Shown: piece after piece, positions 4,153 to 16,117 of the stretch
Layout: each line of letters opens with the position of its first letter
Numbering within the stretch: the stretch's first letter is position 1
Virus record (IMG/VR): IMGVR_UViG_2740892235_000017
Location: 1-16,117 of that record
Strand: one strand, 5' to 3'
DNA length: 16,117 nucleotides
From: a virus
Taxonomy: Duplodnaviria > Heunggongvirae > Uroviricota > Caudoviricetes
Made by a program: the position numbers and the translations under genes
The notes under the pieces: model-generated
What the model saw: only the letters and a program-made list of their open reading frames with translations
What the model was told of the DNA's origin: nothing
Database searches by the model: none

Positions 4153-4173
4153 CACATAGTGTAACACTATGTG
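4153..4173. promoter_or_regulatory. Perfect 21-bp palindrome (candidate operator) upstream of the HigB-2-like/HTH pair
   Basis: CACATAGTGT-A-ACACTATGTG is a perfect 10-bp inverted repeat about a central A, directly followed by TATATAAAAT and the SD GAGGCAGG before the ATG at 4197. Confidence 0.5.
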
Positions 4174-4196
4174 TTATATAAAATGCAGAGGCAGGT

Positions 4197-4569
4197 ATGC
4201 GAATTTTCAAAATCGCCTGGTTTGAACGTTTCGCCCGAAAACATCGGATTTCCGATAAATCGCTGCGCAAAATCGTGGAGCAGGCCGATAAGGGGGATCA
4301 TATCCGCAAATTTGGGTAGTGGTGTCATTAAACAAAGATTAGCCCGAAGTGGTGGCGGAAAATCAGGCGGTTACCGGACAATAATTTTTTACCGCGTTGC
4401 AGAAAAAGCCTTTTTCATCTACGCATACGCAAAGAATGAACGAGAGAATATCACTGCTATAGAGGAAAATGCTTTTCGAAAAGCCGCTCCCCATGTCCTC
4501 AATCTTACTGATGAACAGCTGGCACAATTGATTCAACAAGGCCAGTTCACGGAGGTACCCAATGAGTAA
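4197..4569 (+). pseudogene. HigB-2-like (RelE/ParE superfamily) toxin, interrupted by a +1 frameshift in a G-run
   Basis: Frame A from ATG 4197 (good SD) reads MRIFKIAWFERFARKHRISDKSLRKIVEQADKGDHIRKFG then TAG at 4317..4319. Frame B continues ...GSGVIKQRLARSGGGKSGGYRTIIFYRVAEKAFFIYAYAKNERENIT to 4569. Removing one G from GGG at 4314..4316 joins them in frame. The joined product resembles Vibrio HigB-2 as recalled (GKRGGSRIIYYF...YGKNE). Confidence 0.5.
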
Positions 4570-4879
4570 AAATTACCGCAGTGATGCACTTGCATCTGTA
4601 CATGAAATGATGGAGTCACTCCATGATATCGGTGCAATCACAAAACAAACTATGCGCGAATTCGATGAAACTTGTCTTCAGCCTGCGCCGGTAATGTCTC
4701 CAGAAAGGATCCGTGCACTGCGAGAACGAGAGCATCTGTCTCAACCTGTTTTTGCCAGATACCTCAACGTCAGTAAAAACCTGATATCAGACTGGGAACG
4801 AGGAGTGAAACGCCCGGGAGGTGCAGCTCTTCGGCTTCTTTCAGTTGTCGAGAAAAACGGGATCCAGGTAATATCCTGA
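4562..4879 (+). CDS. HigA-like antitoxin / XRE-type HTH regulator (105 aa)
   Basis: ATG at 4562 preceded by GGAGGT; overlaps the toxin stop by 8 nt. C-terminal HTH-like segment LSQPVFARYLNVSKNLISDWERGVKRPGGAALRLL. Toxin-first gene order is typical of higBA. Confidence 0.6.
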   Translation: MSKNYRSDALASVHEMMESLHDIGAITKQTMREFDETCLQPAPVMSPERIRALREREHLSQPVFARYLNVSKNLISDWERGVKRPGGAALRLLSVVEKNGIQVIS

Positions 4880-4981: not shown

Positions 4982-5137
4982 TTACTCCTCAGGTTCGTAA
5001 GCTGTGAAGACAGCGACCTCCGTCTGGCCGGTTCGGATTCGTACCTCGCAGAGGTCTTTCCTCGTTACCAGTGCCGTCATTATGACGGTTAAACAGATGA
5101 CAATCAGGGCGATTAACATCGCCTTTTGCTGCTTCAT
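4982..5137 (-). CDS. hokD: Hok/Gef-family type I toxin (HokD/RelF-like, 51 aa)
   Basis: MKQQKAMLIALIVICLTVIMTALVTRKDLCEVRIRTGQTEVAVFTAYEPEE closely matches recalled E. coli HokD (RelF). SD GGAGAAG lies upstream of the ATG at 5135..5137. The ORF-track 70-aa form is an in-frame upstream extension. Confidence 0.85.
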   Translation of the reverse strand: MKQQKAMLIALIVICLTVIMTALVTRKDLCEVRIRTGQTEVAVFTAYEPEE

Positions 5138-5400
5138 AGCCTGCTTCTCCTTGCCTTTCGGCACGTAAGAGGCTAACCTACATGTGCAAAGCATGAAATT
5201 GGCCTCAGATTAATGTTAAGCGTCCTGCAAGACGCGTAATGTTAACTGGGGCTTTTCTCTGTCTGCCTTACGGCGGCATGCCCGAGGCAGACAGCCTCAA
5301 GCACCCGCAGCAATTCTACTTAACTCTTCTTTCCCCGCAAATCATTTTATCCCCGATGGTAATGTTCTCCCGATATGGGAATTCCCATATCAAGGTTAAC
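5138..5400 (-). promoter_or_regulatory. hok leader region (mok/sok-type regulation expected); candidate antisense Sok RNA on the plus strand
   Basis: About 260 nt of untranslated leader upstream of hok, containing an inverted repeat TCTGTCTGCC...GGCAGACAG (about 5257..5292). Hok loci are known to carry a structured leader and an antisense RNA; exact ends cannot be set here. Confidence 0.35.
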
Positions 5401-5408
5401 TCAATCGG

Positions 5409-5960
5409 TTAAAGCTCCATTAATTTTCCGGCCAGTTCATCTCGTGGCATTACCAGCCATCCGCGCGATTTAAGCAAAGCCAGGGCTTCTTCAACCGTCA
5501 CCAGCTGGCCTGGCGCATAACTTCGGATGAAGGCGGTTTTATCGTCACGGATCGCCAGGTGAAAATCGATATTCATTTTTCCCATAGCCCGCTCTTTCTC
5601 GTACTGGTTGAAGTAACTGTCTTCGAGTTTTTCGAATACTTCCCACGCCTGATCGGTTTCGAGCATTTTTGCATGACGGGCTGCTCCGCGTTCTGTCCAG
5701 AGGATGAGAGTGCGGGTTTTGGGAGAAATTTTCACCTCATTTTGCGACTCGTTTAAAACTAGTCGCAAATTTTTGAGCTCATCACCAACAGCTTTAAAGA
5801 AGTGTTTTCCCTCAATAAATCGAGATTTATTTTCATGGTGATTCTGCTGTATACGGATTGCTTCTGTTCCGTAAAGGCGGGCGAGTAACTCAGTTGTGAT
5901 TACAGGAATCTGGTTATAAGTGACAGGGGAAAGGTTTTTGACAGTAACTTGAGTCGTCAT
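5409..5960 (-). CDS. ORF6N-domain (antirepressor-like) phage protein
   Basis: 183-aa ORF; N-terminal region YNQIPVITTELLARLYGTEAIRIQQNHHENKSRFIEGKHFF matches the recalled ORF6N signature (...RFIEGKHYF). Confidence 0.55.
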   Translation of the reverse strand: MTTQVTVKNLSPVTYNQIPVITTELLARLYGTEAIRIQQNHHENKSRFIEGKHFFKAVGDELKNLRLVLNESQNEVKISPKTRTLILWTERGAARHAKMLETDQAWEVFEKLEDSYFNQYEKERAMGKMNIDFHLAIRDDKTAFIRSYAPGQLVTVEEALALLKSRGWLVMPRDELAGKLMEL

Positions 5961-6121
5961 GATAACGCCCTCTGGTTGATGAATTTAACTATCACCACCT
6001 TCAGGTCTCAATCATCAGGTGGCGAGACGTACAGGGTTGAGACTACCGGATCAACCAACCGGCCAGCCTTTCGGCTGCCCCATACGCCTCACCATAATTC
6101 AGATGTGCGTGCGCATACGAC

Positions 6122-6145
6122 AATAAAAAACACGCTCGCGGCGTG
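6122..6145 (-). terminator. Rho-independent terminator on minus strand
   Basis: Minus-strand hairpin CACGC-cgcga-GCGTG (plus 6131..6145) followed by TTTTTT (plus A-run 6125..6130). Confidence 0.45.
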
Positions 6146-6301
6146 TGTCTGTCGCGGTTGAATATCCGGGGTCTCAATCCCGACGGTCAACTCGACCGTG
6201 CGGTGAATATAGCCCCGGATTAGTAATTACGTCAACCCCAGCGGCAAATCGAATAAACCACCAGCGCTACCGCCATTGCAACTCCTGCCGTTACGAATGC
6301 C

Positions 6302-6565
6302 TCAGGCCAGGTCATCGTAAACTATCTCAGCGCCAATCAGTCCGTTTCGCTTCAGGCAGTCCATCGCTTTATACGGTAATTTGGCTGACAGGCGAAAATC
6401 ACCCTGCAGCATCAGGCTTATTCCCTTATCCCGGGCTTTCGCTCTGACCGCTGCCTCGCTACGACCAATCAGACTGCCGATACTTTCGACAGTCATCGTT
6501 CCCGCGCACTGCCGGAGTATCAGAATTTCAGCCCGGCACCACGTCTTCCACCCACTCACCGCTGC
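6302..6565 (-). CDS. Small GcrA-like DNA-binding-domain protein (about 87 aa)
   Basis: Segment [46 protein letters not shown] aligns with the recalled GcrA N-terminal domain (W..ERVELLKKLWAEGLSASQIAAELGGVSRNAVIGKVHRLGL). Likely GTG start at 6563..6565 overlapping the upstream TGA as GTGA. Confidence 0.4.
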
Positions 6566-7290
6566 TGTTCTCTGGTGGCGGTAATATCCCGGAGAATATC
6601 CCGGCACTTGTTCAGCTCCCGCAGCGCGGCGCAGACTCGCTCCCACTTCTGAACCTGACCTTTTGCCCGGCGCAGCTCGCGGTTAGCCACATGCAGCGAT
6701 GGTAAAATCAGCCCATCCGGATGCTTTCTGGTGAACGACGGCTGTGACTGCACTGTGACCGCCACACTTTCCGTTTTTATTTCTTCCTGTGTTTCCGCTT
6801 CCCGGACTGGTAACGCAACACATGCTGGCTGAGGAAAGGCTTTACCATCGGTTTCCGCTACGGATGCAGCTTCCGGCTCTGCCGGTAAATCAGCGCCCGG
6901 TATGCAGTAACGAAATTTACCGCCCTGATTCACGCGAATCAGACGCCCTTTGCTGATTGCCATGGCCAGCGATGAATTCGCCCGGCGGGAGGTAATCCCG
7001 AACATCAGTGCCAGCTCATCCGCCGTTTGTGGGCCATGTTGTTCAATCGCCTCAGTCAGCATTTGCGCTGTCACTTTCGGTACCGGTGACACTGGTTCAC
7101 TTTCACCTGCCTGAGTCAGCCACCACATCGACCCCTTGTTATCCGCTTCACCACGGCGCTTCAGTTTCCACAGTTCGTTGACCGCATCTTCACGGCTGAT
7201 TCCAAGGCGGGCCGCCACTACCTGTGAAGAGGCTCTTTTCAGTGCTTTCAGTGCGTCAAATACGGTTTCCATTAAAATTTCCTCCGACAA
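6556..7290 (-). CDS. Hypothetical phage early protein (244 aa) with N-terminal winged-helix-like segment
   Basis: Long ORF immediately downstream of the P-like gene with coding-like composition. Family not confidently recognised (possibly DUF1627-like). Confidence 0.45.
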
Positions 7291-7305
7291 AATCGTTTCC
7301 CAGAT

Positions 7306-7968
7306 TCAAATAAAACCAGCTGCCTTCCGGCGTTCGTATTCCTGTTTCAGCCGTTCAATTGGCGTTGGGCCTTGAGGGTGTTTCGCCCCTTCCAGTTGTC
7401 GTCGCACTGGCGGAACACTCATCCCGTTACCAACATGCTTTGCCCATTTCGTCAGTTGCCGTTCCGCAAGTCGTTTTAACTCACCCTGCGTCATCTGGCG
7501 CTCAATCCCTCTGGTACGCATTTCGAGGCAGATGTGGTACAGCACAGGCTGTGGCCACGGGTATTTATCACTCCCGTCGTATCGCCAGGATTCATTGCGC
7601 CAGCGCCGGTACTCTTCCATCACGGCATCCACCGTAAGACCAAATGGATTTGCCCCACTCTCCGAAATCAGCGCAACAAACTCAGCCAGGTCCGGGGGCC
7701 ACGTTTCACCCGCCCGGCAGCGGTCCATGCACTGACGGCAGACCAGACGGATTTGCTGTTCAGTCATCGCACCAATCTGGGCAATCCAGAGCTTCGAAGG
7801 TGCGGCCCCGTTCTTCTGAGTCCAGCGGTTCGAATACACCTCCCCCATAAGCTCCCACAGCTTCCAGGCCGTTTCCGTTGCTGATAAATCCGTTGTCACG
7901 TTCCCACTGTTCGCGTGCTGCCCGGATTTCCTGAACTGCCCGTGATGCCGTGCCACCTGATGCTGCAT
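7306..7968 (-). CDS. Replication protein P-like (helicase loader); start uncertain
   Basis: C-terminal half (GLTVDAVMEEYRRWRNESWRYDGSDKYPWPQPVLYHICLEMRTRG...ELKRLAERQ) aligns with recalled lambda P (GLPNVSELVDMVYEYCRKRGLYPDAESYPWKSNAHYWLVTNLYQNMRA...ELRRKAADE). The ORF as drawn overlaps the O-like gene by 209 nt. Confidence 0.65.
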   Translation of the reverse strand: MQHQVARHHGQFRKSGQHANSGNVTTDLSATETAWKLWELMGEVYSNRWTQKNGAAPSKLWIAQIGAMTEQQIRLVCRQCMDRCRAGETWPPDLAEFVALISESGANPFGLTVDAVMEEYRRWRNESWRYDGSDKYPWPQPVLYHICLEMRTRGIERQMTQGELKRLAERQLTKWAKHVGNGMSVPPVRRQLEGAKHPQGPTPIERLKQEYERRKAAGFI

Positions 7969-8797
7969 GGCTTCCCCCCTTGCTGACTGGTTTTACCTGT
8001 GCCCTGACGTGCTGCACGTGGCGGGCAAATTTCTGCTCCCACTGAACCTGCGTGAAAACCTTCCCCTCCGCCATCCAGTAATCCCGGAATGCGGCAAGCT
8101 CTGCAGGTGTAAATTCCGGCTCAGGCAGAGCCATACCCCACACTGCTGCCCGTTGTCGAAAATCCGGCGACGGCTGCCAGACAGTAGTCATCGAAAATTT
8201 CCCGATCGGTTCGCTCAGGCCGTCCAGGTATTCAGGTTCGGCTGTCTGCAACGGCGCACCATTCGACTCACTGGTCGGAATACTCTCGCGCGCGTTATGT
8301 GTAGGGTTTAATTCTGTATCTGTATCTTTATCTGTCGTGACTTGTCGTGACAGATGCGTGACACGTCGTGACTCATCGTGACAATCAGCATTATGTTTCC
8401 GCAGCTTTTCCCGCTCCCGCTGCGCTCTCTTGCGCTCTGCCGGGGATTTTGCCGTTTGCGAAACGTTACCATTGTCCTCTTTCAGCACCTGACGTTTTTC
8501 CCATCCGGAAATAAGGTCACCATCCAGAACCCGCCCCTGCATTGCATGCAAAATTGAATCAATTACGTCTTCCGTCACATCAAGCGCACTTGCTAAATCT
8601 TCCGTCGTGACATCAATGTGACCACGTAGTGACACGCCGTGACATGTCGTGACATTTCGTGACGCGCTCACCAGAAGGTGTATATACACTGCCATCACTG
8701 TTGCGATTGGCTGTCCTGATACCCTGGCAATCGTTCGCCACTTGGGGTCATTTGGCATGTCATGCCACAATCTGAGCCAGGCATTAGCCATACTCAC
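7760..8797 (-). CDS. Replication initiator O-like protein (N-terminal wHTH, DnaT-like C-terminal region)
   Basis: 345-aa ORF upstream of the P-like gene. N-terminal WLRLWHDMPNDPKWRTIARVSGQ is typical of phage replisome-organizer N-domains as recalled. Contains two internal arrays of direct repeats (iterons). Confidence 0.65.
   Translation of the reverse strand: MSMANAWLRLWHDMPNDPKWRTIARVSGQPIATVMAVYIHLLVSASRNVTTCHGVSLRGHIDVTTEDLASALDVTEDVIDSILHAMQGRVLDGDLISGWEKRQVLKEDNGNVSQTAKSPAERKRAQREREKLRKHNADCHDESRRVTHLSRQVTTDKDTDTELNPTHNARESIPTSESNGAPLQTAEPEYLDGLSEPIGKFSMTTVWQPSPDFRQRAAVWGMALPEPEFTPAELAAFRDYWMAEGKVFTQVQWEQKFARHVQHVRAQVKPVSKGGSHAASGGTASRAVQEIRAAREQWERDNGFISNGNGLEAVGAYGGGVFEPLDSEERGRTFEALDCPDWCDD
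8335..8382. repeat. Iteron array 1: five TCGTGAC/GCGTGAC direct repeats at 10-11 bp spacing, inside the O-like gene
   Basis: Heptamers at 8335, 8345, 8356, 8366, 8376. An AT-rich stretch lies immediately 5' (about 8296..8334). Confidence 0.6.
8605..8663. repeat. Iteron array 2: six GTGAC-containing direct repeats at 10-11 bp spacing, inside the O-like gene
   Basis: Repeats at 8605, 8617, 8629, 8637, 8647, 8657 (TCGTGAC, TGTGAC, AGTGAC, CCGTGAC, TCGTGAC, TCGTGAC). Confidence 0.6.
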
Positions 8798-8859
8798 CTC
8801 TTCTGATACCGAACTTTACCCACGAACTTCCGGAAGAAATCCGGTATAAATATTGTTGG

Positions 8860-9285
8860 TCAATGCACAACAACAGCATTACCAGGCTGACCACCACTGT
8901 TAGTCAGGGTGCCCCAGGCGATCGCTACAGCGACAAAATCATCCACATCTTTCACCAGCCGATCCCGTCGTTCGACGATCTCCCGGTAATATTCAGAACT
9001 GTGACTGCGCATACGGGCCACCAGCAAAGGCGGCATCGCCTTTTCGATCGCCGGTAACAGCGCCTGAATTTTTTCAACAGCATCAGACGTGTCCTTCTCC
9101 ACCCAGCGGAAAATTTTCTGGGTATTACGGGCCAGGGCTTCCGGATGGCTGTCGTCATACAGTTCCGGGAACGTCATCCCCAGCTCGAAATAAGTCCGGG
9201 CTATTTCAGCTGCGGGAACTTTCTCACCATCAGGATATGCCCAGGCATTCATCGCCATACGGATGTGTTCATGCTTGATTTTCAT
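8860..9285 (-). CDS. YdaT-like protein (CII-position gene of Rac-type immunity regions)
   Basis: 141-aa ORF immediately downstream of the Cro-like gene, beginning MKIKHEHI, which matches my recollection of Rac YdaT. Assignment by position and partial recall. Confidence 0.45.
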   Translation of the reverse strand: MKIKHEHIRMAMNAWAYPDGEKVPAAEIARTYFELGMTFPELYDDSHPEALARNTQKIFRWVEKDTSDAVEKIQALLPAIEKAMPPLLVARMRSHSSEYYREIVERRDRLVKDVDDFVAVAIAWGTLTNSGGQPGNAVVVH

Positions 9286-9544
9286 GAATCACCCCCGTCT
9301 CTGGTTGTGTGTTAGCCTGACACTCGACAGGTAAGCCGTCGGTTGGGTTGGGATAAGAACTGCGATCAATCTCGTGCGGAGTTACTATCCAGCCAGTTGC
9401 TTCACACCAACGTAAAATTTTTTCCCCCGTAAGTTTCGCCCGCCCGGTAATGACATGGCTTACCATCCCCTGGGTTACCCCAACAATTTCAGCAAAATGT
9501 TTCTGAGTTATACCGGAATAACGCAAATATTCTCCAAGATTCAT
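9269..9544 (-). CDS. Cro-like / YdaS-like HTH regulator (91 aa)
   Basis: N-terminal HTH-like segment (ITQKHFAEIVGVTQGMVSHVITG). Divergent from the repressor gene. SD GAGGTG upstream of the ATG at 9542..9544. Confidence 0.6.
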   Translation of the reverse strand: MNLGEYLRYSGITQKHFAEIVGVTQGMVSHVITGRAKLTGEKILRWCEATGWIVTPHEIDRSSYPNPTDGLPVECQANTQPETGVIHENQA

Positions 9545-9574
9545 TGTTCACCTCATGTGATGTCATCACGATCA

Positions 9575-9603
9575 TTAATAGCATTGTTATTTTTAAAAGT
9601 AAA
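9575..9603 (-). promoter_or_regulatory. Candidate leftward promoter for the cro-like operon (pR analogue)
   Basis: Minus strand: -35 TTTACT (plus 9598..9603), 17-nt spacer, -10 TATTAA (plus 9575..9580). Overlaps operator candidates A and B. Confidence 0.3.
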
Positions 9604-9616
9604 TAGCGCCACTATT
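9577..9616. promoter_or_regulatory. Operator pair (OR-like): two 15-bp sites of form AATAGC-N3-GCTATT, centres 25 bp apart
   Basis: Site A 9577..9591 AATAGCattGTTATT; site B 9602..9616 AATAGCgccACTATT. Each has one mismatch to a perfect inverted repeat. Located in the cro-like/repressor intergenic region. Confidence 0.55.
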
Positions 9617-9644
9617 TCAAAGAGATTAATAATCTTATTAGAAT
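9616..9644 (+). promoter_or_regulatory. Candidate rightward promoter for the repressor operon (pRM analogue)
   Basis: -35 TTCAAA (9616..9621), 17-nt spacer, -10 TAGAAT (9639..9644). Predicted start would be close to the ATG at 9652 (near-leaderless, as for lambda cI from pRM). Confidence 0.3.
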
Positions 9645-9651
9645 TGAAGGT

Positions 9652-10152
9652 ATGAAAAGAAAATCCCTGTCAGAGATCGACCTGCAAGCCGCCCAGAGAC
9701 TAAAAGAAATCTGGACGGCGAAAAAAAATCAACTAGGGTTAACCCAAGAGCGTGCGGCAGAAATTCTGGGATTTTCGACACAGGGAGCTGTAAGCCATTA
9801 TCTAAATGGTCAGACACCTTTAAATCTTGAGGCTGTTATCAAGTTCGCAGGGTTACTGCAAGTTCCTCCCGAGTCAATCAGACCAGATATGGCCGAGTTG
9901 TTACAAATTGTAAGGATGTATCCCCAAGAATCTGGGGAGGACAATGTTGTCACTATATCTGCCGATATGGAACAATCGGAAAACGAACTTCCGTTTAATA
10001 TAGACCCCATGGAGCGGGATTTGCTCCAGACGTTCAGGGCTTTCCCCAAAGAAGATAAAGAGAAAATGCTTAAGGAAATGAAGGAGAAAAAAGAATCAAT
10101 TGAAGAAATCGTTGCGCGATGGCTAGCTGCGCAAAAAAGTCGTCGCGCCTAA
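9652..10152 (+). CDS. CI-like prophage repressor (XRE-family HTH, no S24 peptidase domain); PaaR-like first gene of a three-gene repressor-antitoxin-toxin operon
   Basis: 166-aa ORF with N-terminal HTH (LGLTQERAAEILGFSTQGAVSHYLNG) and a charged helical C-terminus. Divergent from the cro-like gene. Followed 17 nt later by the antitoxin gene. Confidence 0.65.
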   Translation: MKRKSLSEIDLQAAQRLKEIWTAKKNQLGLTQERAAEILGFSTQGAVSHYLNGQTPLNLEAVIKFAGLLQVPPESIRPDMAELLQIVRMYPQESGEDNVVTISADMEQSENELPFNIDPMERDLLQTFRAFPKEDKEKMLKEMKEKKESIEEIVARWLAAQKSRRA

Positions 10153-10169
10153 TCTGAGGAGGTCAAAAC

Positions 10170-10361
10170 ATGAGTACAGCCCTTTCCCCGATAATTTCTG
10201 AATTTGAAACGGTCGAACAAGAAAACAGCTATAACGAATGGTTGCGAGCCAAAGTGGCAGCAAGCCTCGCAGATCCCCGTTCTGGAATTCCGCATGATGA
10301 AGTAATGGCTGAAATGGAAAACCTTATTGCTCAATTAGCTACAACGAACAGGAGTGAGTAA
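10170..10361 (+). CDS. Small antitoxin of a ParE-family toxin (PaaA-like, 63 aa)
   Basis: Strong SD GAGGAGG before the ATG at 10170. Its stop overlaps the toxin ATG by 1 nt. Size and context match the PaaA2 antitoxin of paaR-paaA-parE modules as recalled. Confidence 0.55.
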   Translation: MSTALSPIISEFETVEQENSYNEWLRAKVAASLADPRSGIPHDEVMAEMENLIAQLATTNRSE

Positions 10362-10651
10362 TGCTGCCCATTTTATGGCTACCTTCTGCACGTGATGATT
10401 TACGTCAGATAGTAGCCTATATTGCTAAAGAAAACCCTCCCGCTGCACGTAGACTAAAAATACGCATTGAAACATCAGTTTTGTCACTTACTGAACACCC
10501 TTATCTGTACCCACCGAGCGAAAGAGTTCCAAGTCTTCGAGAGATAGTGACTCATCCTAACTACATAATACTTTACCGAGTAACAACATCTAACATCGAG
10601 ATCGTAAATGTAGTTCACTCACGAAGGCAGTATCCAAACAAAAGCTGTTAA
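10361..10651 (+). CDS. parE: ParE/RelE-superfamily toxin (96 aa)
   Basis: ParE-like features: N-terminal LPSARDDLRQIVAYIAKENPPAARRL and C-terminal IEIVNVVHSRRQYP. Translationally coupled to the upstream antitoxin. Confidence 0.6.
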   Translation: MLPILWLPSARDDLRQIVAYIAKENPPAARRLKIRIETSVLSLTEHPYLYPPSERVPSLREIVTHPNYIILYRVTTSNIEIVNVVHSRRQYPNKSC

Positions 10652-10662
10652 TCATTTCTGTC

Positions 10663-10688
10663 AAAAACCACCTTCGGGTGGTTTTTTT
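10663..10688 (+). terminator. Rho-independent terminator after the repressor-TA operon
   Basis: AACCACC-ttcg-GGTGGTT hairpin followed by TTTTTTT (10682..10688). Confidence 0.7.
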
Positions 10689-10699
10689 CTTGCCGTGAT

Positions 10700-10739
10700 A
10701 ATAGCGTTGCTATTTACATAATTAAATAGCAGTGGTATT
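10700..10739. promoter_or_regulatory. Operator pair (OL-like): two 15-bp sites AATAGC-N3-GCTATT, centres 25 bp apart
   Basis: Site C 10700..10714 AATAGCgttGCTATT (perfect); site D 10725..10739 AATAGCagtGGTATT (one mismatch). Same motif and same 25-bp spacing as the OR-like pair. Confidence 0.55.
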
Positions 10740-10741
10740 GT
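10713..10741 (+). promoter_or_regulatory. Candidate pL-like promoter for the early-left operon
   Basis: -35 TTTACA (10713..10718), 17-nt spacer, -10 TATTGT (10736..10741). Overlapped by operator sites C and D. Confidence 0.35.
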
Positions 10742-10919
10742 TTATGCATCAACCCACCCCGTCCCACAGAATGCAGGGCAATACTTCGAGTTACCCGGCA
10801 GTGGCAAGGGGTTAAGTAGCCAGCCCGAGGCGTATGAACATGACGGCGGGAACACTTTGTATAACAGCGCAGCAGGTTTTTAGTTCCGCTACCCGGCGTT
10901 AAGGGTAAATGAGGTCAAC

Positions 10920-11072
10920 ATGGATACGCTCAATCTTGGCAACAACGAATCTCTGGTATGCGGTGTGTTCTCTAACCAGGACGGCACGTTTACCGCGATG
11001 ACGTATACCAAAAGTAAAAAGTTTAAAACCGAAGCTGGCGCGCGTCGCTGGTTAGCCAGAAACACTAACTGA
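10920..11072 (+). CDS. Small early-left protein (50 aa; YdfA-like)
   Basis: ATG at 10920 with SD GAGGT 5 nt upstream; TGA at 11070..11072. Below the ORF-track size cutoff. Occupies the position ydfA holds downstream of dicA in Qin. Confidence 0.4.
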   Translation: MDTLNLGNNESLVCGVFSNQDGTFTAMTYTKSKKFKTEAGARRWLARNTN

Positions 11073-11324
11073 TTAGTACCAGTAAAAACAGGTTGCCACT
11101 GGTTAATTTACCCTGAAAAGTCAGGGCATAACACGAAAGCGCACGGCGAAGTTCGTATATCTGTACGGCGTCGTTAAATTTTCTTCGACCGTGCACTTCC
11201 GGTTGTGGCAATCCGCGAAATGGCGCGGCGGTAAGTATGGCTGGGGTTTCCTCCATTGCTCCAGAAAATGCACCGGGTTGTCAGGTTGACCATACGCTTA
11301 AGTGACAGCCCCGCCACAATACCC

Positions 11325-11380
11325 ATGTGTAGTCTTTGGTGGCATCAGTTCTACTCCGTGACTGCTCTGCCACCCTTTTT
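11325..11380 (+). ncRNA. dicF: DicF-like small RNA with intrinsic terminator
   Basis: Segment ...GGTGGCATCAGTTCTACTCCGTGACTGCTCTGCCACCCTTTTT closely resembles recalled E. coli DicF. Terminator stem GGTGGCA/TGCCACC (11338..11344 and 11368..11374) plus T-run 11376..11380. Lies immediately upstream of dicB as in Qin. The 5' end is approximate. Confidence 0.5.
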
Positions 11381-11547
11381 AAAGTGAATTTTGTGATGCG
11401 GTGAATGCGGCTAAGCGCACGCGGAACAGTTAAAGCTAAAAACAGCGTTATGGGTGATTCTGTATTCCGGCGTTAATTGTTAACTGGTTAACGTCACCTG
11501 GAGGCACCAGGCACCACATCACAAAATTCATTGTTGAGGACGCGATA

Positions 11548-11736
11548 ATGGAAACGTCACTACCAAACGTTAATACGTCTGAAGGGTGTTTTAATATTGG
11601 TATTCTGCTCAGTAACCGGGAGTTTACTGAGGACGCCATCAGGATGAGAAAATATGAGCCTTATCTTCTCAATGATAATTCCATACTCTCCAGAATTGCC
11701 CTTCTTGAACTTGGCATTTTCGGAGGGCAGCAGTGA
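11548..11736 (+). CDS. dicB: Cell-division inhibitor DicB (62 aa)
   Basis: METSLPNVNTSEGCFNIGILLSNREFTEDAI... matches recalled DicB (M.TLLPNVNTSEGCFEIG...FTEDAI), same length. SD GAGGA upstream. Confidence 0.75.
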   Translation: METSLPNVNTSEGCFNIGILLSNREFTEDAIRMRKYEPYLLNDNSILSRIALLELGIFGGQQ

Positions 11737-11872
11737 GTTCAGCGTTTACACTGATGATGACGGTTTTTCTGATAACAGGTGAGCCACAGAAAGTGATTAC
11801 CGGAATTTATGCCAGTAAAGAATCCTGCCATCAGGCAAGAGACGAGCAAAAAATTTCCGGTGAATGTCTCCC
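11733..11872 (+). other. ydfD-like ORF copy truncated by the assembly gap (probable artefact copy)
   Basis: GTG start overlapping the dicB TGA (GTGA). Encodes MSSAFTLMMTVFLITGEPQKVITGIYASKESCHQARDEQKISGECL and then runs into the N-run at 11873. Confidence 0.4.
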
Positions 11873-11882
11873 NNNNNNNNNN
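11873..11882. other. Assembly gap (10 N)
   Basis: Run of 10 n characters. Confidence 1.
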
Positions 11883-11940
11883 ATCATTCCATACTCTCCA
11901 GAATTGCCCTTCTTGAACTTGGCATTTTCGGAGGGCAGCA

Positions 11941-12129
11941 GTGAGTTCAGCGTTTGCACTGATGATGACGGTTTTTCTTATAACAGGTGAGCCACAGAAT
12001 GTGATTACCGGAATTTATGCCAGTAAAGAATCCTGCCATCAGGCAAGAGACGAGCAAAAAATTTCCGGTGAATGTCTCCCGTTAAACAAAGTATCGCTGT
12101 ACCTGAATAACGAAATACCGGCTGGATAA
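11941..12129 (+). CDS. ydfD: YdfD-like small membrane protein (62 aa; Qin lysis protein homologue)
   Basis: MSSAFALMMTVFLITGEPQNVITGIYASKESCHQARDEQKISGECLPLNKVSLYLNNEIPAG has an N-terminal hydrophobic helix. Position directly after dicB and size match Qin YdfD as recalled. Confidence 0.55.
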   Translation: MSSAFALMMTVFLITGEPQNVITGIYASKESCHQARDEQKISGECLPLNKVSLYLNNEIPAG

Positions 12130-12224
12130 CCCGCCAGCCATATTAACGCCATACCAACGGATTAAAAATGCCAGCAATGGCAGGGATTCGTTCACCCTGA
12201 AATCTGTAATGAGGTTTAAACACA

Positions 12225-14696
12225 ATGAGTAAAATATTTATTTGCGCCGCCATTCCTGACGAACAGGCAATAAAAAACGAGGGCGCTGTTGCTGTGGCCA
12301 CAGCCATTGAAGCCGGTGATGAACGTCGCGCCCGCGCAAAATTTCACTGGCAATTCCTTGAACATTATCCGGCTGCTCAGGACTGCGCTTATAAATTTCT
12401 TGTCTGTGAGGATAAACCCGGTACACCCCGCCCAGCCCTCGACTCCTGGGATGCTGAATATATGCTGGAAAACCGCTGGGATGAGGCGTCTGCTTCCTTT
12501 GTCCCGGTCGAACCTGAATCAGATCCGATGAACGTCACTTTTGACAAGCTGGCCCCTGAAGTACAGAACGCTGTCATGGTTAAGTTCGATACATGTGAAA
12601 ACATCACCGTTGATATGGTGATTAGCGCACAGGAATTGTTGCAGGAAGACATGGCAACCTTCGACGGACATATCGTGGAAGCTTTGATGAAAATGCCAGA
12701 AGTTAACGCCATGTATCCGGAGCTTAAGCTGTATGCCATCGGGTGGGTTAAGCATAAATGTAAGCCTGGTGCCAAATGGCCAGAAATTCAGGCAGAGATG
12801 CGCACCTGGAAAAAACGTCGCGAAGCAGAACGAAAAGAAACCGGGAAACATACTTCTGTTGTTGAGCTGGCCCGCGCCAGAGTCAACCAACAGCACACTG
12901 AAAACTCAGCAGCAAAAATCAACCCTGTCACTACTGCCATTCGTCGCGAATACAAGCAGACATGGAAAACCCTGGATGAAGAGCTGGCTTACGCTCTCTG
13001 GCCTGGTGATATTGATGCCGGAAACATTGACGGTACCATCCATCGCTGGGCTAAAAATGAGGTTATCGACAAGGATCGCGAAGACTGGAAGCGTATCTCT
13101 GCATCAATGCGCAAACAGCCTGATGCGCTTCGCTATGACCGTCAGACTATTTTTGGCCTTGTTCGTGAGCGCCCGATCGACATTCACAAAGATCCCGTTG
13201 CACTGAACAAATACATCAGCGAATACCTGACGACAAAGGGCGTGTTTGAACATGAAGAAACAGACCAGAGCTCTGCTGATGCTATCCTGTCGTCAGCAGC
13301 ACAAACTGATCCAGTGGAGACGGCGGAATCCAATTCTCAAAAAAATGAAATCCTGGTGGAAGCTGAACCATCTGTAGAGCGTGAAGGACCGTTTTATTTC
13401 GTCTTTACCGATAAGGACGGGGAAAAATACGGCAGGGCAAACAAACTTTCTGGCCTGGACAAGGCGCTGGCTGCCGGTGGTACCGAAATCTCAAAAGAAG
13501 AATATTTTGCCCGAAAAAATGGCACATATACGGGCTTACAGCAAAATACAGATACCGCAGAAGATTCAGAACAACCAGAGCCGGTAAAAGTTACCGCTGA
13601 CGAAGTAAACAAAATTATGCAGGCAGCCAATATCAGCCAGCCTGACACCGATAAATTGCTTGCTGCATCACGTGGTGAATTTGTTGAAGGGATTAGCGAC
13701 CCGAATGATCCGAAATGGGTTAAGGGGATTGAAACCCGCGATTCTGTGAACCAGAACCAGCCCGAATCGGAACAAAACGACCAGAAAGCGGAACAAAACA
13801 GTCCAAATGCGTTACAAAACGAGCCAGAAACGAAACTGCCTGAACCAGAAGTGCAACAAGAACCGGAAAAAGTTTGCACCGCATGCGGTCAGACCGGTGG
13901 CGGCAACTGTCCTGACTGTGGTGCGGTGATGGGGAACGCAACCTACCAGGAAACATTCGATGAAGAGAATCAGGCTGAAGCTCAGGAAAATGATCCGGAG
14001 GAAATGGAAGGCACTGAACATCTGCACAAGGAGAACACTATCAGCGATCAGTATCACGCCAGCGATAATAAAACTGGCGAGACAGCAAATCCCTTAATTA
14101 AAGTGAACGGTCATCATGAAATCACATCCACCAGCAGGTTGTGGCACCATCTGATGATTGACCTTGAAACAATGGGAAAAAATCCTGATGCGCCAATAAA
14201 CGCTATAGCCGGTAAGTTTTTTGATCCGGCAACCGGAGAGATGGGGCCAGAATTCAGCAAAACTATCGATCTGGAAACCGCAGGCGGGGTCATCGATCGG
14301 GGCACCATTAAGTGGTGGCTGAAACAGTCACGCGAAGCACAATCCGCCATTCTGACCGATGAAATCCCGTTGGATGATGCACTGCTGCAATTCCGGGAAT
14401 TTATCGACGAAAACTCCGGTGAATTTTTTGTTCAGGTCTGGGGTAACAGTGCAACTTTCGACAACGTGATTTTACGCCGTTCATATGAACGGCAGGGGAT
14501 CCCCTGCCCGTGGCGTTACACCAATGATCGCGATGTAAGAACGATGGTTGCTCTGGGACTGGTGATGGATTTCGACGCAAGAACGACTATTCCATTCGAA
14601 GGTGAACGCCATAACGCGCTGCACGATGCGCGTTACCAGGCAAAATACGTTTCAGCCATCTGGCAAAAACTGATCCCGAGTCAGGCTGATTTTTAA
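12225..14696 (+). CDS. Large prophage protein (823 aa) with C-terminal DnaQ-like (DEDDh) 3'-5' exonuclease domain
   Basis: SD TGAGG upstream of ATG 12225. C-terminal region has Exo I-like MIDLETMG and Exo III-like HNALHDARYQAKY. An acidic low-complexity linker (about 13740..13860) and a CxxC-x7-CxxC motif (CTACGQTGGGNCPDCG, about 13876..13923) precede it. Confidence 0.65.
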   Translation: MSKIFICAAIPDEQAIKNEGAVAVATAIEAGDERRARAKFHWQFLEHYPAAQDCAYKFLVCEDKPGTPRPALDSWDAEYMLENRWDEASASFVPVEPESDPMNVTFDKLAPEVQNAVMVKFDTCENITVDMVISAQELLQEDMATFDGHIVEALMKMPEVNAMYPELKLYAIGWVKHKCKPGAKWPEIQAEMRTWKKRREAERKETGKHTSVVELARARVNQQHTENSAAKINPVTTAIRREYKQTWKTLDEELAYALWPGDIDAGNIDGTIHRWAKNEVIDKDREDWKRISASMRKQPDALRYDRQTIFGLVRERPIDIHKDPVALNKYISEYLTTKGVFEHEETDQSSADAILSSAAQTDPVETAESNSQKNEILVEAEPSVEREGPFYFVFTDKDGEKYGRANKLSGLDKALAAGGTEISKEEYFARKNGTYTGLQQNTDTAEDSEQPEPVKVTADEVNKIMQAANISQPDTDKLLAASRGEFVEGISDPNDPKWVKGIETRDSVNQNQPESEQNDQKAEQNSPNALQNEPETKLPEPEVQQEPEKVCTACGQTGGGNCPDCGAVMGNATYQETFDEENQAEAQENDPEEMEGTEHLHKENTISDQYHASDNKTGETANPLIKVNGHHEITSTSRLWHHLMIDLETMGKNPDAPINAIAGKFFDPATGEMGPEFSKTIDLETAGGVIDRGTIKWWLKQSREAQSAILTDEIPLDDALLQFREFIDENSGEFFVQVWGNSATFDNVILRRSYERQGIPCPWRYTNDRDVRTMVALGLVMDFDARTTIPFEGERHNALHDARYQAKYVSAIWQKLIPSQADF

Positions 14697-14760
14697 TGTT
14701 CAACCCCGGTCGTCGCCCGCAAGCTATAGTGGCGGCGACCATGATTAGCGAACAACTCTC

Positions 14761-15009
14761 ATGGCAAGACTTATTCTTCTCACTGAGTGGGCAAAAGAGG
14801 AATTCAGTGACCCGGTCCCGACTCCGGGCACGTTAAGTAAATACGCTAAAGCCGGAATGATATTTCCTCTCCCCAAAAAAGTTGGAAGACACTGGCGAGT
14901 GGATCCTCGAGCTCGCTTTGTCGGAATGGTAAACAAGCCGGAAGTGATCGCCACAGATCACCCTGCTTTGAAGAGGATACTGGAAGATGGCGCGCCCACG
15001 AAAATATAA
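14761..15009 (+). CDS. xis: Excisionase-like protein (Xis)
   Basis: 82-aa ORF directly upstream of int, overlapping it by 23 nt. Segment GMIFPLPKKVGRHWRV resembles the lambda Xis DNA-binding region (RIFPPPVKDGREY). Confidence 0.6.
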   Translation: MARLILLTEWAKEEFSDPVPTPGTLSKYAKAGMIFPLPKKVGRHWRVDPRARFVGMVNKPEVIATDHPALKRILEDGAPTKI

Positions 15010-16117
15010 AACTGAAGTTCCGGGATTATCTCCGTATTTTGACAAAAGAAATAACAAAGTTTACTGGCGTTACAGGCATCCCATAACAGGAAAAAATCAC
15101 GGGCTCGGCAGTATTGACCAGAAACAGGCAGAAGCTATTGCAGCAGAAGCGAACAGCCGTCTTGCCAGGCAACAAATGGAACAAATGCTCACTCTGCAGG
15201 AGAAAATTATTCGTGATACCGGTGGTTCATCAACCGTTTCTGTTTTTCTGAATAGTTACCGAAAAATTCAACAGGAAAGATATGAAAACGGAGAGATCAA
15301 ACTCAACACACTGAAACAGAAAGCATCCCCTCTCAGGGTATTTGATGAACGTTTTGGTACCAGACCTTTAGATGCCATAACCGTAAAAGATGTGGTATCG
15401 GTGCTGGAAGATTACAAGGCAAAAGGACATAACAGAATGGGACAAATTTTCAGGAAAGTACTGATTGATGTTTTCCGGGAGGCCCAGCAAACGGGCGATG
15501 TCCCGCCAGGCTTTAACCCTGCAGAATCGGCAAAAAAACCACAGGTACGGATATCACGGCAACGACTGACCTTTGATGAGTGGATGATGATTTATAATGC
15601 AGCGGAAAAGGATGGTTACTTTTTACAGCGTGGTATGCTGCTGGCACTGATGACAGGCCAGCGCCTTTCAGATATTTGCAAAATGAAATTTTCGGATATC
15701 AGGGATGGTTATCTTCATGTCGAACAGCAAAAAACAGGAACCCGGATTGCCATCCCTCTGGCTCTGCGTTGCGATAAATTAAATCTCACCCTGGATGATG
15801 TGGTGTCATCCTGTCGCGATTGCGTTCTTAGTCCGTGGCTATTGCACCACCATCATGCTAAAGGGACAGCTAAGCGCGGCGGGATGGTTAAGCCAGCAAC
15901 GTTAACCGTTGCATTTAAAAAAGCCCGGGATTCTGTGGATTACAACTGGCGTGCTAATGGCACCCCACCCTCTTTCCATGAGCAGAGATCTTTATCAGAA
16001 CGATTGTTCAGAGAACAGGGAATTGATACCAAAATTTTGCTGGGCCATTCGAATCAAAAAATGACCGATATTTACAACGACGCACGCGGTAAGGAATGGA
16101 AAAAACTGGTCATTTGA
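14987..16117 (+). CDS. int: Tyrosine-type site-specific integrase
   Basis: 376-aa ORF with typical phage integrase N-terminus (MARPRKYKT...YWRYRHPITGK) and a C-terminal catalytic region (...LLGHSNQKMTDIYNDARG) containing the presumed active-site Tyr. Ends at the window edge with its stop. Confidence 0.85.
   Translation: MARPRKYKTEVPGLSPYFDKRNNKVYWRYRHPITGKNHGLGSIDQKQAEAIAAEANSRLARQQMEQMLTLQEKIIRDTGGSSTVSVFLNSYRKIQQERYENGEIKLNTLKQKASPLRVFDERFGTRPLDAITVKDVVSVLEDYKAKGHNRMGQIFRKVLIDVFREAQQTGDVPPGFNPAESAKKPQVRISRQRLTFDEWMMIYNAAEKDGYFLQRGMLLALMTGQRLSDICKMKFSDIRDGYLHVEQQKTGTRIAIPLALRCDKLNLTLDDVVSSCRDCVLSPWLLHHHHAKGTAKRGGMVKPATLTVAFKKARDSVDYNWRANGTPPSFHEQRSLSERLFREQGIDTKILLGHSNQKMTDIYNDARGKEWKKLVI

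Follow-up and report, generated by a model that had tools for sequence, protein, structure and literature searches.

The gene for a 166-aa repressor and the two small genes behind it very probably form the immunity operon of a lambdoid E. coli prophage, laid out like cI-rexA-rexB, in which sequence and comparison with related loci place a PaaA–ParE toxin–antitoxin (TA) pair in the rexAB slot, where it would act as an addiction module. Stabilisation of the immunity region is the most likely role of the TA pair. Prophages of E. coli O157:H7 are already known to have this arrangement, so the system counts as an as yet uncharacterised member of a familiar group and not as a novelty. Within the 16,117-nt stretch of DNA that was analysed (the window), the operon is flanked by OR/PRM and OL/PL, with a Cro-like and a YdaT gene on the opposite strand (Table 1), in agreement with the immunity position given to it in the original prediction.

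Table 1. Features of the predicted immunity region (window coordinates).
Feature	Position	Strand	Basis or remark
YdaT-family gene (141 aa), CII analogue	8860..9285	-	Pfam YdaT_toxin 40.7 bits; phrog_163
Cro-like/YdaS-analogue HTH gene (91 aa)	9269..9544	-	HTH_3 26.7 bits; phrog_35; divergent from repressor
Candidate YdaT operator, TTGATTTTCATGAATCAC	9275..9292	.	cro/ydaT junction; expected PRE-type site
Predicted PR	9575..9603	-	-35 TTTACT 9603-9598, 17-nt spacer, -10 TATTAA 9580-9575
OR1, TAATAGCATTGTTATTT	9576..9592	.	AATAG-N5-CTATT, one mismatch; overlaps PR -10
OR2, AAATAGCGCCACTATTT	9601..9617	.	Perfect 17-bp palindrome; overlaps PR -35, abuts PRM -35
Predicted PRM, TTCAAA-17-TAGAAT	9616..9644	+	Promoter scan; -10 ends 7 nt before repressor ATG
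Repressor gene (166 aa)	9652..10152	+	Lambda CI NTD structures; HTH_3; DicA C-terminal match; BLASTP PaaR
paaA, antitoxin (63 aa)	10170..10361	+	Pfam PaaA2 PF21217; NCBIfam NF050103; PDB 3zbe
parE, toxin (96 aa)	10361..10651	+	Pfam ParE_toxin PF05016; PDB 5cw7 ParE2
Intrinsic terminator of the immunity operon (t_imm analogue)	10663..10688	+	Folding; conserved stem
OL1 (10699-10715), OL2 (10724-10740) and predicted PL (10713-10741, TTTACA-17-TATTGT)	10699..10741	+	

The ORF coordinates confirm that the repressor, 63-aa and 96-aa genes are co-oriented, with a gap of 17 nt between the first two and a 1-nt overlap of paaA with parE (stop and start read TAATG). They are not chance ORFs, since each has a significant family match (HTH_3 at 38.8 bits for the repressor, PaaA2 at 74.2 bits against a cut-off of 27, ParE_toxin at 66 bits against a cut-off of 23). 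In comparisons with diverged alleles for which dS was unsaturated, dN/dS lay between 0.05 and 0.2 for all three genes, indicating that each is under purifying selection. Reading of the sequence places a Shine-Dalgarno motif, GAGGAGG, before paaA (10156–10162) and AGGAG 6 nt upstream of the parE ATG, and the overlap of the two genes fits translational coupling. The single terminator that the original prediction had assigned to all three genes is borne out by folding energies and shuffled controls: a hairpin at 10663–10686 (AAAAACCACC-TTCG-GGTGGTTTTT) with a T-run up to 10688 has a folding energy of −16.3 kcal/mol (z = −4.3), which 0/200 shuffles matched. Its stem is kept in 20 alleles, in which only the loop and the length of the T-run vary. 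A consensus scanner missed this terminator; the A/T-extended stem probably consumes the T-run. An Rfam search of 9200–11200 at a permissive threshold returned only sub-threshold matches on this hairpin, and thus no known RNA element in the operon. From PRM to paaA the promoter scan gave nothing except a weak 9/12 consensus match within the repressor gene (9947–9976), and the conserved 3' part of that gene (10022–10169) contained no promoter-like site. From one predicted promoter, one terminal terminator and no internal terminator we infer that the repressor gene, paaA and parE are co-transcribed.

The 63-aa protein lies directly upstream of parE and belongs to the PaaA family, matching NF050103 at 92.9 bits and the solved PaaA2 structure 3zbe with E 9.5e-22; it is 81% identical to the allele of strain EC4115 and 62–70% identical to PaaA2. 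Of the Pfam and NCBIfam models it matched those of PaaA2 alone and none for ParD or RHH, which rules out a canonical ParD–ParE system. The 96-aa protein is a ParE-superfamily homologue of ParE1 and ParE2 (5cw7 ParE2, E 9.5e-37), with 84–87% identity to the EC4115 allele and 64–66% to ParE2. The proposed kinship with PaaR2, PaaA2 and ParE2 therefore stands in full for antitoxin and toxin, both of which match the solved structures, and for the repressor in its C-terminal part only; the module as a whole is of paaR-paaA-parE type, as the original prediction suggested.

The repressor is, judged by its matches, a chimera of a CI-homologous N-terminal domain (NTD) and a PaaR-homologous C-terminus. 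Its predicted domains are a CI-type DNA-binding domain (about residues 1–90), a linker and a PaaR/DicA-type helical domain (about 119–166), the last of which probably serves oligomerisation. Residues 2–90 match structures of the lambda CI NTD (7jvt, 1lmb and 1rio, E ~1e-9), and the alignment to full-length lambda CI ends at about residue 115. The NCBIfam DicA model matches residues 107–163 only (E 1.4e-7). By BLASTP, the similarity to PaaR2 covers the last 44 aa (E 2e-16, 55% identity) and that to EC4115 PaaR the last 76 aa (E 2e-23), with 73% identity in the C-terminal domain. The NTD shows no relationship to its counterparts in PaaR1 and PaaR2 (15–18% identity). Pfam and NCBIfam gave no Peptidase_S24 match in the repressor; despite its CI-type NTD it does not belong to the autocleavable lambda CI/LexA-like (S24) family. 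Since the S24 autocleavage and dimerisation domain is lacking, RecA-mediated induction is not expected; a LexA box (CTGT-N8-ACAG) is absent from the whole window. Acidic residues align with lambda E34 and D38, which we take to be the PRM positive-control patch of CI, and the basic N-terminal arm is kept. A PDB sequence search with the repressor matched lambda CI entries only and no PaaR2 structure. A single-sequence AlphaFold2 model (pLDDT 47.7) was too poor to support a domain model; suggestively, it shows five N-terminal helices, a linker and three C-terminal helices.

Candidate operators for this repressor were recognised as matches to AATAG-N5-CTATT. The window holds five such matches (0.34 expected), four of which flank the operon as two pairs of 17-bp sites spaced 25 bp centre to centre, and each pair overlaps the −35 and −10 elements of an outward promoter, PR or PL. 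Among 17 OR and 20 OL alleles the half-sites are constant and the central 5 bp variable, which is the signature of a putative dimer-bound operator. The island of operators is specific to the immunity type, and the DNA to either side of it is conserved between heteroimmune loci. There are two clear predicted operators per side; a third, OR3 over PRM, matched at 7/10 positions by eye, too weak to claim. We read PR from the sequence, the scanner having missed it since its −10 has no T at position 6; its layout is the same as that of PL, and it would drive the cro-like, ydaT and replication genes. Predicted PL reads into DUF1391-DicF-dicB-exo-xis-int. All 17 distinct alleles keep both PRM hexamers unchanged, as they do the 7 nt from the −10 to the repressor ATG, and about 43 bp separate the centre of OR2 from the predicted PRM start downstream of it. 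Because the −10 sits 7 nt from the ATG, transcription is predicted to start on the ATG itself and the repressor mRNA to be leaderless.

The flanking genes are those of a lambdoid prophage, with Cro-like, YdaT, DnaT-domain and P replication genes on one side and DUF1391, DicF, dicB, exonuclease and integrase on the other. The Cro-like protein matches phrog_35 (transcriptional repressor, E 4e-21), and its gene has the position of ydaS in CP-933P (PMC8630535). The YdaT protein matches phrog_163 ('CII-like transcriptional activator', E 2e-45) and is 84% identical to the YdaT encoded beside PaaR2 (locus L004). The candidate YdaT operator has one mismatch to TTGATTN6AATCAA, the published site that occupies the same position in CP-933P (PMC9986795); its genome-wide count alone is not significant, and position is what matches. 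Besides paaA-parE the window encodes hok/sok and a RelE-family toxin paired with an HTH protein, two further TA modules of a kind typical of prophage accessory genes.

We propose that an oligomer of the repressor would bind the 17-bp palindromes (half-site AAATAG), two at OR and two at OL, and so silence both PR (cro-like, ydaT, replication) and PL (DicF, dicB, exonuclease, xis, int). Repressor on OR2, beside the PRM −35, would probably sustain its own leaderless transcript, which would run on through paaA and parE to the single terminator just before OL. With one transcript covering all three genes, every lysogen would make repressor, labile antitoxin and stable toxin together. By analogy with the characterised CP-933P system, on loss or replacement of the immunity segment PaaA synthesis would stop, Clp proteases would degrade the remaining PaaA and ParE would poison the cell, and addiction would thereby keep the immunity cassette in place among prophages that are highly mosaic.

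Lambda cI-rexA-rexB shares with this operon a homologous repressor NTD (E 1e-9 over ~90 aa), 17-bp operators at 25-bp spacing, an OR2 centre ~43 bp upstream of PRM, a leaderless cI-type mRNA (predicted in the window) and a lysogen-expressed payload between the repressor gene and a terminator adjoining OL. Unlike lambda, the repressor here lacks S24, RexAB gives way to an unrelated TA pair as payload, the unrelated YdaS-like and YdaT proteins take the place of Cro and CII, and clear operators number two per side. DicA of Qin and DicA-like repressors resemble the window's repressor in combining an HTH domain with a short C-terminal helical domain; that of the closest backbone relative, FWSEC0010 (135 aa), can be aligned over its full length with 21% identity (E 8e-7). 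DicA-type loci without the TA pair differ in that the repressor gene is followed directly by the DUF1391 gene, with no paaA-parE.

The nearest described systems are those of O157:H7. The location of paaR2-paaA2-parE2 in the immunity region of CP-933P/Sp12 is already published (Hallez 2010; Jurenas 2021, PMC8630535), and PaaR2, YdaS and YdaT have been described as analogues of CI, Cro and CII (PMC8630535). PaaR2 octamerises and forms a bistable switch with YdaS, paaR2 and lambda cI mRNAs are experimentally leaderless, PaaA2 is degraded by ClpAP and ClpXP, and the ydaST-RAE2 region is as good as ccdAB at stabilising a mini-F plasmid (PMC8630535). ParE2 activity was undetectable in either state of the PaaR2 switch and appeared only after physical loss of the locus, as post-segregational killing (PMC8630535). 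In a later paper the TA pair is said to have taken the place of rexAB (PMC9986795). The window shares with CP-933P the gene order, the location between OR/PRM and OL/PL and the divergent ydaS-like and ydaT genes, and its repressor shares with PaaR2 a leaderless start (predicted here), the lack of S24 and the common C-terminal ~44 aa (55%). It differs in that PaaR2 (123 aa) has no detectable similarity to CI, whereas the 166-aa repressor is a true homologue of the lambda CI NTD, and in its operators, which are AATAG-N5-CTATT here and four 18-bp repeats of GTTTAGTAA type in CP-933P. The C-terminal tail of PaaA and the N-terminal half of ParE are also of another specificity type than those of PaaA2 and ParE2; PaaA1 and PaaA2 do not neutralise each other's ParE (PMC4803016).

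The closest TA alleles (PaaA 81%, ParE 84–87%) and the same flanking genes occur in the second O157:H7 paralogue, locus L002 of EC4115, which by elimination we take to be paaR1-paaA1-parE1 of CP-933M, making ParE1 the nearest toxin. Its 133-aa repressor has an NTD of a different class (18% identity) joined to a C-terminal domain 73% identical to ours, and its operators (AAAAACTGT...ACAGTTTTT) and cro-like gene differ from those of the window. Because neither PaaR1 nor PaaR2 has an NTD related to that of the repressor, activation at PRM and the number of operators may differ from CP-933P. We also considered tight co-evolution of the repressor C-terminal domain with the TA type, a hint of contact between them, and rejected it on account of one locus, L005, which combines PaaR1-like N- and C-terminal domains with a type-2 (PaaA2/ParE2-like) TA pair.

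The immunity type of the window is fairly common, its whole module being present in 72 of 5426 complete E. coli genomes. Five E. coli and 80 IMG/VR loci, their genomic context mapped by tblastn, all carry PaaA, ParE, the PaaR C-terminal domain and YdaT in the same layout, with the repressor C-terminal domain directly upstream of the TA pair in 85/85; the window's own type, a third beside the two of O157:H7, accounts for 38 of the 80 sampled IMG/VR loci. The module was seen only in prophages and IMG/VR contigs (in INPHARED no record spans it, and the best match covers 14% of the query), and it occupies several integration sites, including that of at least one Stx2a prophage (FORC_069). Beyond the enterobacteria, 34 of the 36 species genomes found carry a free-standing two-gene PaaA–ParE, the hosts being Alpha- and Betaproteobacteria (Bartonella, Acetobacteraceae, Sphingomonadales, Paracoccus and Burkholderiales). 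Where the two genes are adjacent, they overlap or lie up to ~70 nt apart, with PaaA 51–73% and ParE 46–71% identical; unlike the window, these modules have no PaaR C-terminal domain, YdaT or lambdoid context within 2.5 kb. The comparison thus marks PaaA–ParE as an ancient proteobacterial gene pair that E. coli prophages have acquired downstream of no fewer than three different repressor DNA-binding domains.

Other relations between repressor and TA pair can be envisaged. The pair could replace rexAB functionally as an anti-phage defence that aborts or excludes superinfecting phages, addiction being a side effect. Its place exactly in the rexAB slot, from repressor gene to t_imm/OL (PMC9986795), its predicted expression from the lysogenic promoter and the RelE-family/HTH and hok/sok modules in the same window would suit such a function. 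We nevertheless regard it as unlikely: the three proteins had no PADLOC match with E <= 0.01, PHROGs lists both the PaaA and the ParE family with function unknown, the cited PaaA–ParE literature reports no defence phenotype, and two-gene paaA-parE pairs are widespread outside prophage immunity regions. Those free-standing pairs would also fit a mere adjacency, with a repressor independent of a classical type II module autoregulated from its own promoter, for which the weak promoter-like match within the repressor gene could serve; the PaaA–ParE complex partially represses transcription in O157 (PMC4803016). This we hold to be very improbable, given the 17-nt gap, the absence of a terminator between the genes and the one after parE, and the repressor C-terminal domain retained upstream in all enterobacterial loci. 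PaaA, moreover, has no DNA-binding domain (PMC8630535), and in O157 PaaR acts as a repressor and the homologous operon was shown to be co-transcribed from a promoter upstream of paaR (PMC4803016, citing Hallez 2010).

Coupling to induction, a corollary drawn in the original prediction, would make the pair a commitment or dead-man switch during prophage induction or abortive induction, in which inactivation of the repressor leaves PRM silent, PaaA decays and ParE is freed. A single promoter does seem to serve all three genes, and no convincing one lies within the operon; PaaA2 is Clp-labile and locus loss kills cells (PMC8630535). In a CP-933P reporter, however, ydaST-on ('lytic') cells keep appreciable paaA2-parE2 transcription, and their SOS induction (0.88%) does not differ from that of RAE2-on cells (0.95%) and controls (0.84%) (PMC8630535). 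A YdaT-activated PRE-type promoter, with its candidate site at 9275–9292 here, can also feed the operon, and a topoisomerase-directed poison would probably hurt phage replication during lytic growth. We find toxin release on induction quite improbable. A little less credible still is a lambda-type switch blind to SOS, built from the CI DNA-binding domain and a non-cleavable PaaR/DicA oligomerisation domain, in which the TA pair feeds back on the lysis–lysogeny decision, either through a PaaA–ParE complex acting as co-repressor at PRM/PR or through ParE released once PRM is silenced.

These results are of use mainly for annotation. RefSeq labels the three proteins 'helix-turn-helix domain-containing protein', 'RelB family antitoxin' or 'hypothetical protein', and 'RelE/ParE family toxin', whereas together their genes can be assigned to the repressor operon of one particular lambdoid immunity type. 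A survey of the regulatory regions of Stx phages described YdaT-containing types and atypical CI proteins without the peptidase domain, left their function open and drew no connection to the PaaR–PaaA–ParE literature (PMC8951638). Were the SOS-blind feedback switch real, TA balance would influence the induction of Shiga-toxin phages in Stx2a prophages such as that of FORC_069. A repressor that is not expected to be cleaved with RecA would itself matter for the induction of these prophages and of whatever Shiga toxin they encode.

The three co-oriented reading frames and tight gaps of the original prediction were recovered at the coordinates tabulated below: 17 nt separate the repressor gene from paaA, and the paaA stop overlaps the parE start by 1 nt (TAATG). 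GAGGAGG lies ahead of paaA at 10156–10162, and an AGGAG 6 nt ahead of the parE ATG has a spacing compatible with paaA-parE translational coupling. The 63-aa protein matches Pfam PaaA2 (PF21217; 74.2 bits, cut-off 27), NCBIfam NF050103 (92.9 bits) and the solved PaaA2 chain 3ZBE (E 9.5e-22), and for the 96-aa protein the matches are Pfam ParE_toxin (66 bits) and the ParE2 structure 5CW7 (E 9.5e-37). In the 166-aa protein HTH_3 is the sole Pfam domain; residues 2–90 align with the lambda CI N-terminal domain (7JVT, 1LMB, 1RIO; E ~1e-9), residues 107–163 hit the NCBIfam DicA model in its C-terminal part (E 1.4e-7), and no S24 peptidase domain was detected with Pfam, NCBIfam or alignment to lambda CI in the PDB. 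RefSeq names the three products 'HTH domain-containing protein', 'RelB family antitoxin' (or 'hypothetical protein') and 'RelE/ParE family toxin'. Where dS is unsaturated, all three genes are under purifying selection (dN/dS 0.05–0.2).

Coordinates of the repressor-paaA-parE operon and its predicted control sites
Feature	Position	Strand	Basis or remark
Repressor ORF, 166 aa	9652–10152	+	ORF call
PaaA antitoxin ORF, 63 aa	10170–10361	+	ORF call
ParE toxin ORF, 96 aa	10361–10651	+	ORF call
Intrinsic terminator hairpin	10663–10686, T-run to 10688	+	fold −16.3 kcal/mol, z = −4.3
Upstream palindromes (OR)	9577, 9602		pattern count; 25 bp apart
Downstream palindromes (OL)	10700, 10725		pattern count; 25 bp apart
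Predicted PL, TTTACA-17-TATTGT	10713–10741	+	promoter scan
Predicted PR, TTTACT-17-TATTAA	9603–9575	−	read from sequence
Predicted PRM, TTCAAA-17-TAGAAT	9616–9644	+	promoter scan; −35 abuts OR2
Candidate YdaT site	9275–9292		cro/ydaT junction; 1 mismatch to TTGATTN6AATCAA

None of 200 shuffles folded as well as the terminator hairpin, which a simple terminator scanner did not list, probably because its A/T-extended stem uses up the T-run. The pattern AATAG-N5-CTATT (at most 1 mismatch) has five matches in the window, against 0.34 expected, and four of these flank the operon; taken as 17-mers, they overlap the −35 and −10 elements of two outward-facing predicted promoters, PL and PR. The −10 element of predicted PRM ends 7 nt before the repressor ATG, and therefore the predicted start is the ATG itself; leaderless mRNAs are known for lambda cI and paaR2 (PMC8630535). 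Among 17 distinct OR and 20 OL alleles of the window repressor class the half-sites and PRM hexamers are invariant and substitutions concentrate in the central five bases, the pattern that a dimer-contacted operator would give. The repressor retains a basic N-terminal arm (MKRKS) and has acidic residues where lambda CI carries E34 and D38, the PRM-activating patch, and from this alignment we infer that PRM activation from OR2 is plausible. The YdaT recognition sequence is found at the same position in the O157:H7 cryptic prophage CP-933P (PMC9986795).

The operon is set among genes of a lambdoid early region. To the left of the repressor are a Cro-like HTH gene (91 aa), divergently oriented, and a member of the YdaT family (PHROG 'CII-like activator', E 2e-45); farther left come a DnaT-domain replication gene and a homologue of lambda P, followed by RusA and Q; to the right are a DUF1391 gene, DicF RNA, dicB, a DUF1482 gene, exonuclease and integrase. 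The DicF (Rfam, 61 bits), dicB (PF05358, 115.7 bits) and DUF1482 set (11324–11375 and 11548–12129, +) lies downstream of PL, like the dicB operon of prophage Qin. A 10-N run at 11873–11882 is flanked by ~198 bp of duplicated sequence, window 11111–11872 corresponding to 14655–15421 and window 11883–12218 to 15224–15559 of the comparison locus L001; contig ends that overlap were probably joined here in scaffolding, and the duplication gives artificial duplicate ORFs (11733–11990 and 11941–12129).

Hallez et al. 2010, as cited in PMC4803016, defined paaR-paaA-parE as a three-gene operon with its promoter upstream of paaR, in which PaaR is the main and PaaA-ParE a partial repressor, and reported that a ternary complex was undetected and that the two O157 paralogues do not cross-neutralise. 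Jurenas et al. 2021 identified the locus as the immunity region of CP-933P, in which PaaR2 is a CI analogue with a leaderless mRNA, lacks an autocleavage motif and is unresponsive to mitomycin C, YdaS corresponds to Cro and YdaT to CII, and OL/PL equivalents are present (PMC8630535).

We compared the window with four diverged E. coli loci chosen by DNA similarity to the toxin-antitoxin genes. One, L004, is the paaR2-paaA2-parE2 allele, since its 123-aa regulator starts with MQKKE, the experimentally determined PaaR2 N-terminus (PMC8630535), and its PaaA and ParE are identical to the crystallised PaaA2 and ParE2 over the stretches shown; by elimination the other O157 paralogue, L002 of O157:H7 EC4115, is paaR1-paaA1-parE1. 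Window PaaA is 81% identical to that of L002 versus 62–70% for PaaA2, and window ParE 84–87% versus 64–66% for ParE2. The only part of the repressor common to all three is its C-terminal ~45 residues (73% identity to L002, BLASTP E 2e-23; 55% to PaaR2, E 2e-16), whereas the N-terminal domain is unrelated to those of L002 and PaaR2 (15–18% identity) and the operator sequence, present at both OR and OL, differs from one compared locus to the next. DNA similarity to these heteroimmune loci begins at ~10022, the start of the repressor C-terminal domain, and spans paaA, parE and the DUF1391-gene leader, its sole break being the immunity-specific OL island. That leader, ~170 nt of noncoding sequence separating PL/OL from the DUF1391 gene (10750–10919, +), hardly changes between the PaaR1, PaaR2 and window types, in contrast to the operator island beside it. 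Rfam gave no match for the leader, which may act as a regulatory RNA element, nut-like or otherwise, in the PL transcript.

Together, the PaaA2/ParE2 matches, the PaaR C-terminal homology and the lambdoid setting bear out the original prediction of a paaR-paaA-parE-like module at the immunity position. We consider it probable that this is a lambda-like immunity operon whose toxin-antitoxin payload would act as an addiction module holding the immunity cassette, and this is the best-supported reading; the CP-933P region stabilises a mini-F plasmid (PMC8630535). Independent transcription of the toxin-antitoxin pair is very unlikely. A corollary of the original prediction, that toxin is released once repressor expression stops, also appears improbable: it may hold where the genes themselves are lost, by post-segregational killing, but release on a switch of state is unsupported because of the CP-933P single-cell data, in which the switch is bistable and ParE2 activity undetectable in either state (PMC8630535), and because of the candidate YdaT-dependent promoter. 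As paaA2-parE2 replaces rexAB (Prolic-Kalinsek et al. 2023; PMC9986795), this position makes a defence role attractive; we nevertheless regard it as unlikely, the three proteins having no PADLOC match and published work on paaR-paaA-parE and YdaT/CP-933P lending it no support.

Toxin-antitoxin homologues occur in 842 of 5426 complete E. coli genomes. Among the best IMG/VR loci, PaaA, ParE, the PaaR C-terminal domain and YdaT are present in 80 of 80 and the window-type N-terminal domain in 38. The associated repressors cluster into three N-terminal classes, PaaR1-like (133–135 aa; 44 members), window-type (166 aa; 39) and PaaR2 (123 aa; one member, under-sampled as the query set favoured type-1 PaaA). 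In one locus, L005, a PaaR1-class repressor is paired with a type-2 toxin-antitoxin, so repressor N-terminal class and toxin-antitoxin type can be reassorted; the combination speaks against a specific contact through which the repressor C-terminal domain and the pair would co-evolve. Contigs sampled at one genome per species gave 36 PaaA loci (Bartonella, Acetobacteraceae, Sphingomonadales, Paracoccus, Burkholderiales and others), with ParE next in 34 and adjacent in nearly all, and a PaaR C-terminal domain or YdaT within 2.5 kb in none, which marks PaaA-ParE as an old two-gene module captured by E. coli prophage immunity operons. These two-gene pairs (L007–L042) are 46–73% identical to the window proteins and have no PaaR-type regulator nearby, and PaaA lacks a DNA-binding domain.

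The window comes from E. coli. Its 1.7-kb module matches a prophage of strain FORC_069 at 99.8% identity, and 72 of 5426 complete E. coli genomes have it at ≥80% coverage. Prophages with the module occupy differing attachment sites: beside yccA in FORC_069 (a Stx2a prophage), ompW in 08-00022 and mtfA/tRNA-Ser in FHI_NMBU_10, the last two with no annotated stx gene within the 27.7-kb stretches examined. The window backbone is 99.4% identical to ompW-site prophages such as the one in O113:H21 FWSEC0010, with a DicA-like repressor and no toxin-antitoxin pair, and the replication-immunity block (6379–11073) is 97.8% identical to the yccA-site prophage of FORC_069; the window is a recombinant, a mosaic of an ompW-site backbone and a FORC_069-type immunity block. 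In strain OkiPb01682 these two parts sit in separate prophages.

A second type II pair, toxin first (4171–4879, +), has a 132-aa RelE-family toxin (PF06296, 113.7 bits) overlapping a 105-aa HTH_3 protein in a HigBA-like arrangement; the FWSEC0010 relative has the toxin gene annotated as two fragments. A hok/sok type I module at 4982–5306 (−; Hok/Gef ORF, 81 bits; sok RNA, Rfam 117 bits) brings the number of toxin-antitoxin modules in the 16-kb window to three. On the − strand, isrK (6125–6199, Rfam 51 bits) and C4 antisense RNA (6015–6099, 69 bits), preceded by a TTGACG-17-TATATT promoter, lie directly upstream of an ORF6N-domain ORF (5409–5960), so that 5409–6199 looks like a P1/Gifsy-type RNA-controlled antirepressor module. 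The window has no LexA box. This module could be the induction route, the prophage repressor being unable to autocleave.

The finding is thus real and was read correctly, but systems of this kind have been described before. A survey of regulatory regions in Stx phages (PMC8951638) records types with YdaT and 'CI' proteins that lack the peptidase and have no assigned function, with the toxin-antitoxin pair unmentioned. What sets this case apart is a third, common immunity class, whose repressor joins a true lambda CI DNA-binding domain to a PaaR/DicA C-terminal domain and has its own predicted lambda-like 17-bp operators; the class occurs occasionally in Stx2a prophages.
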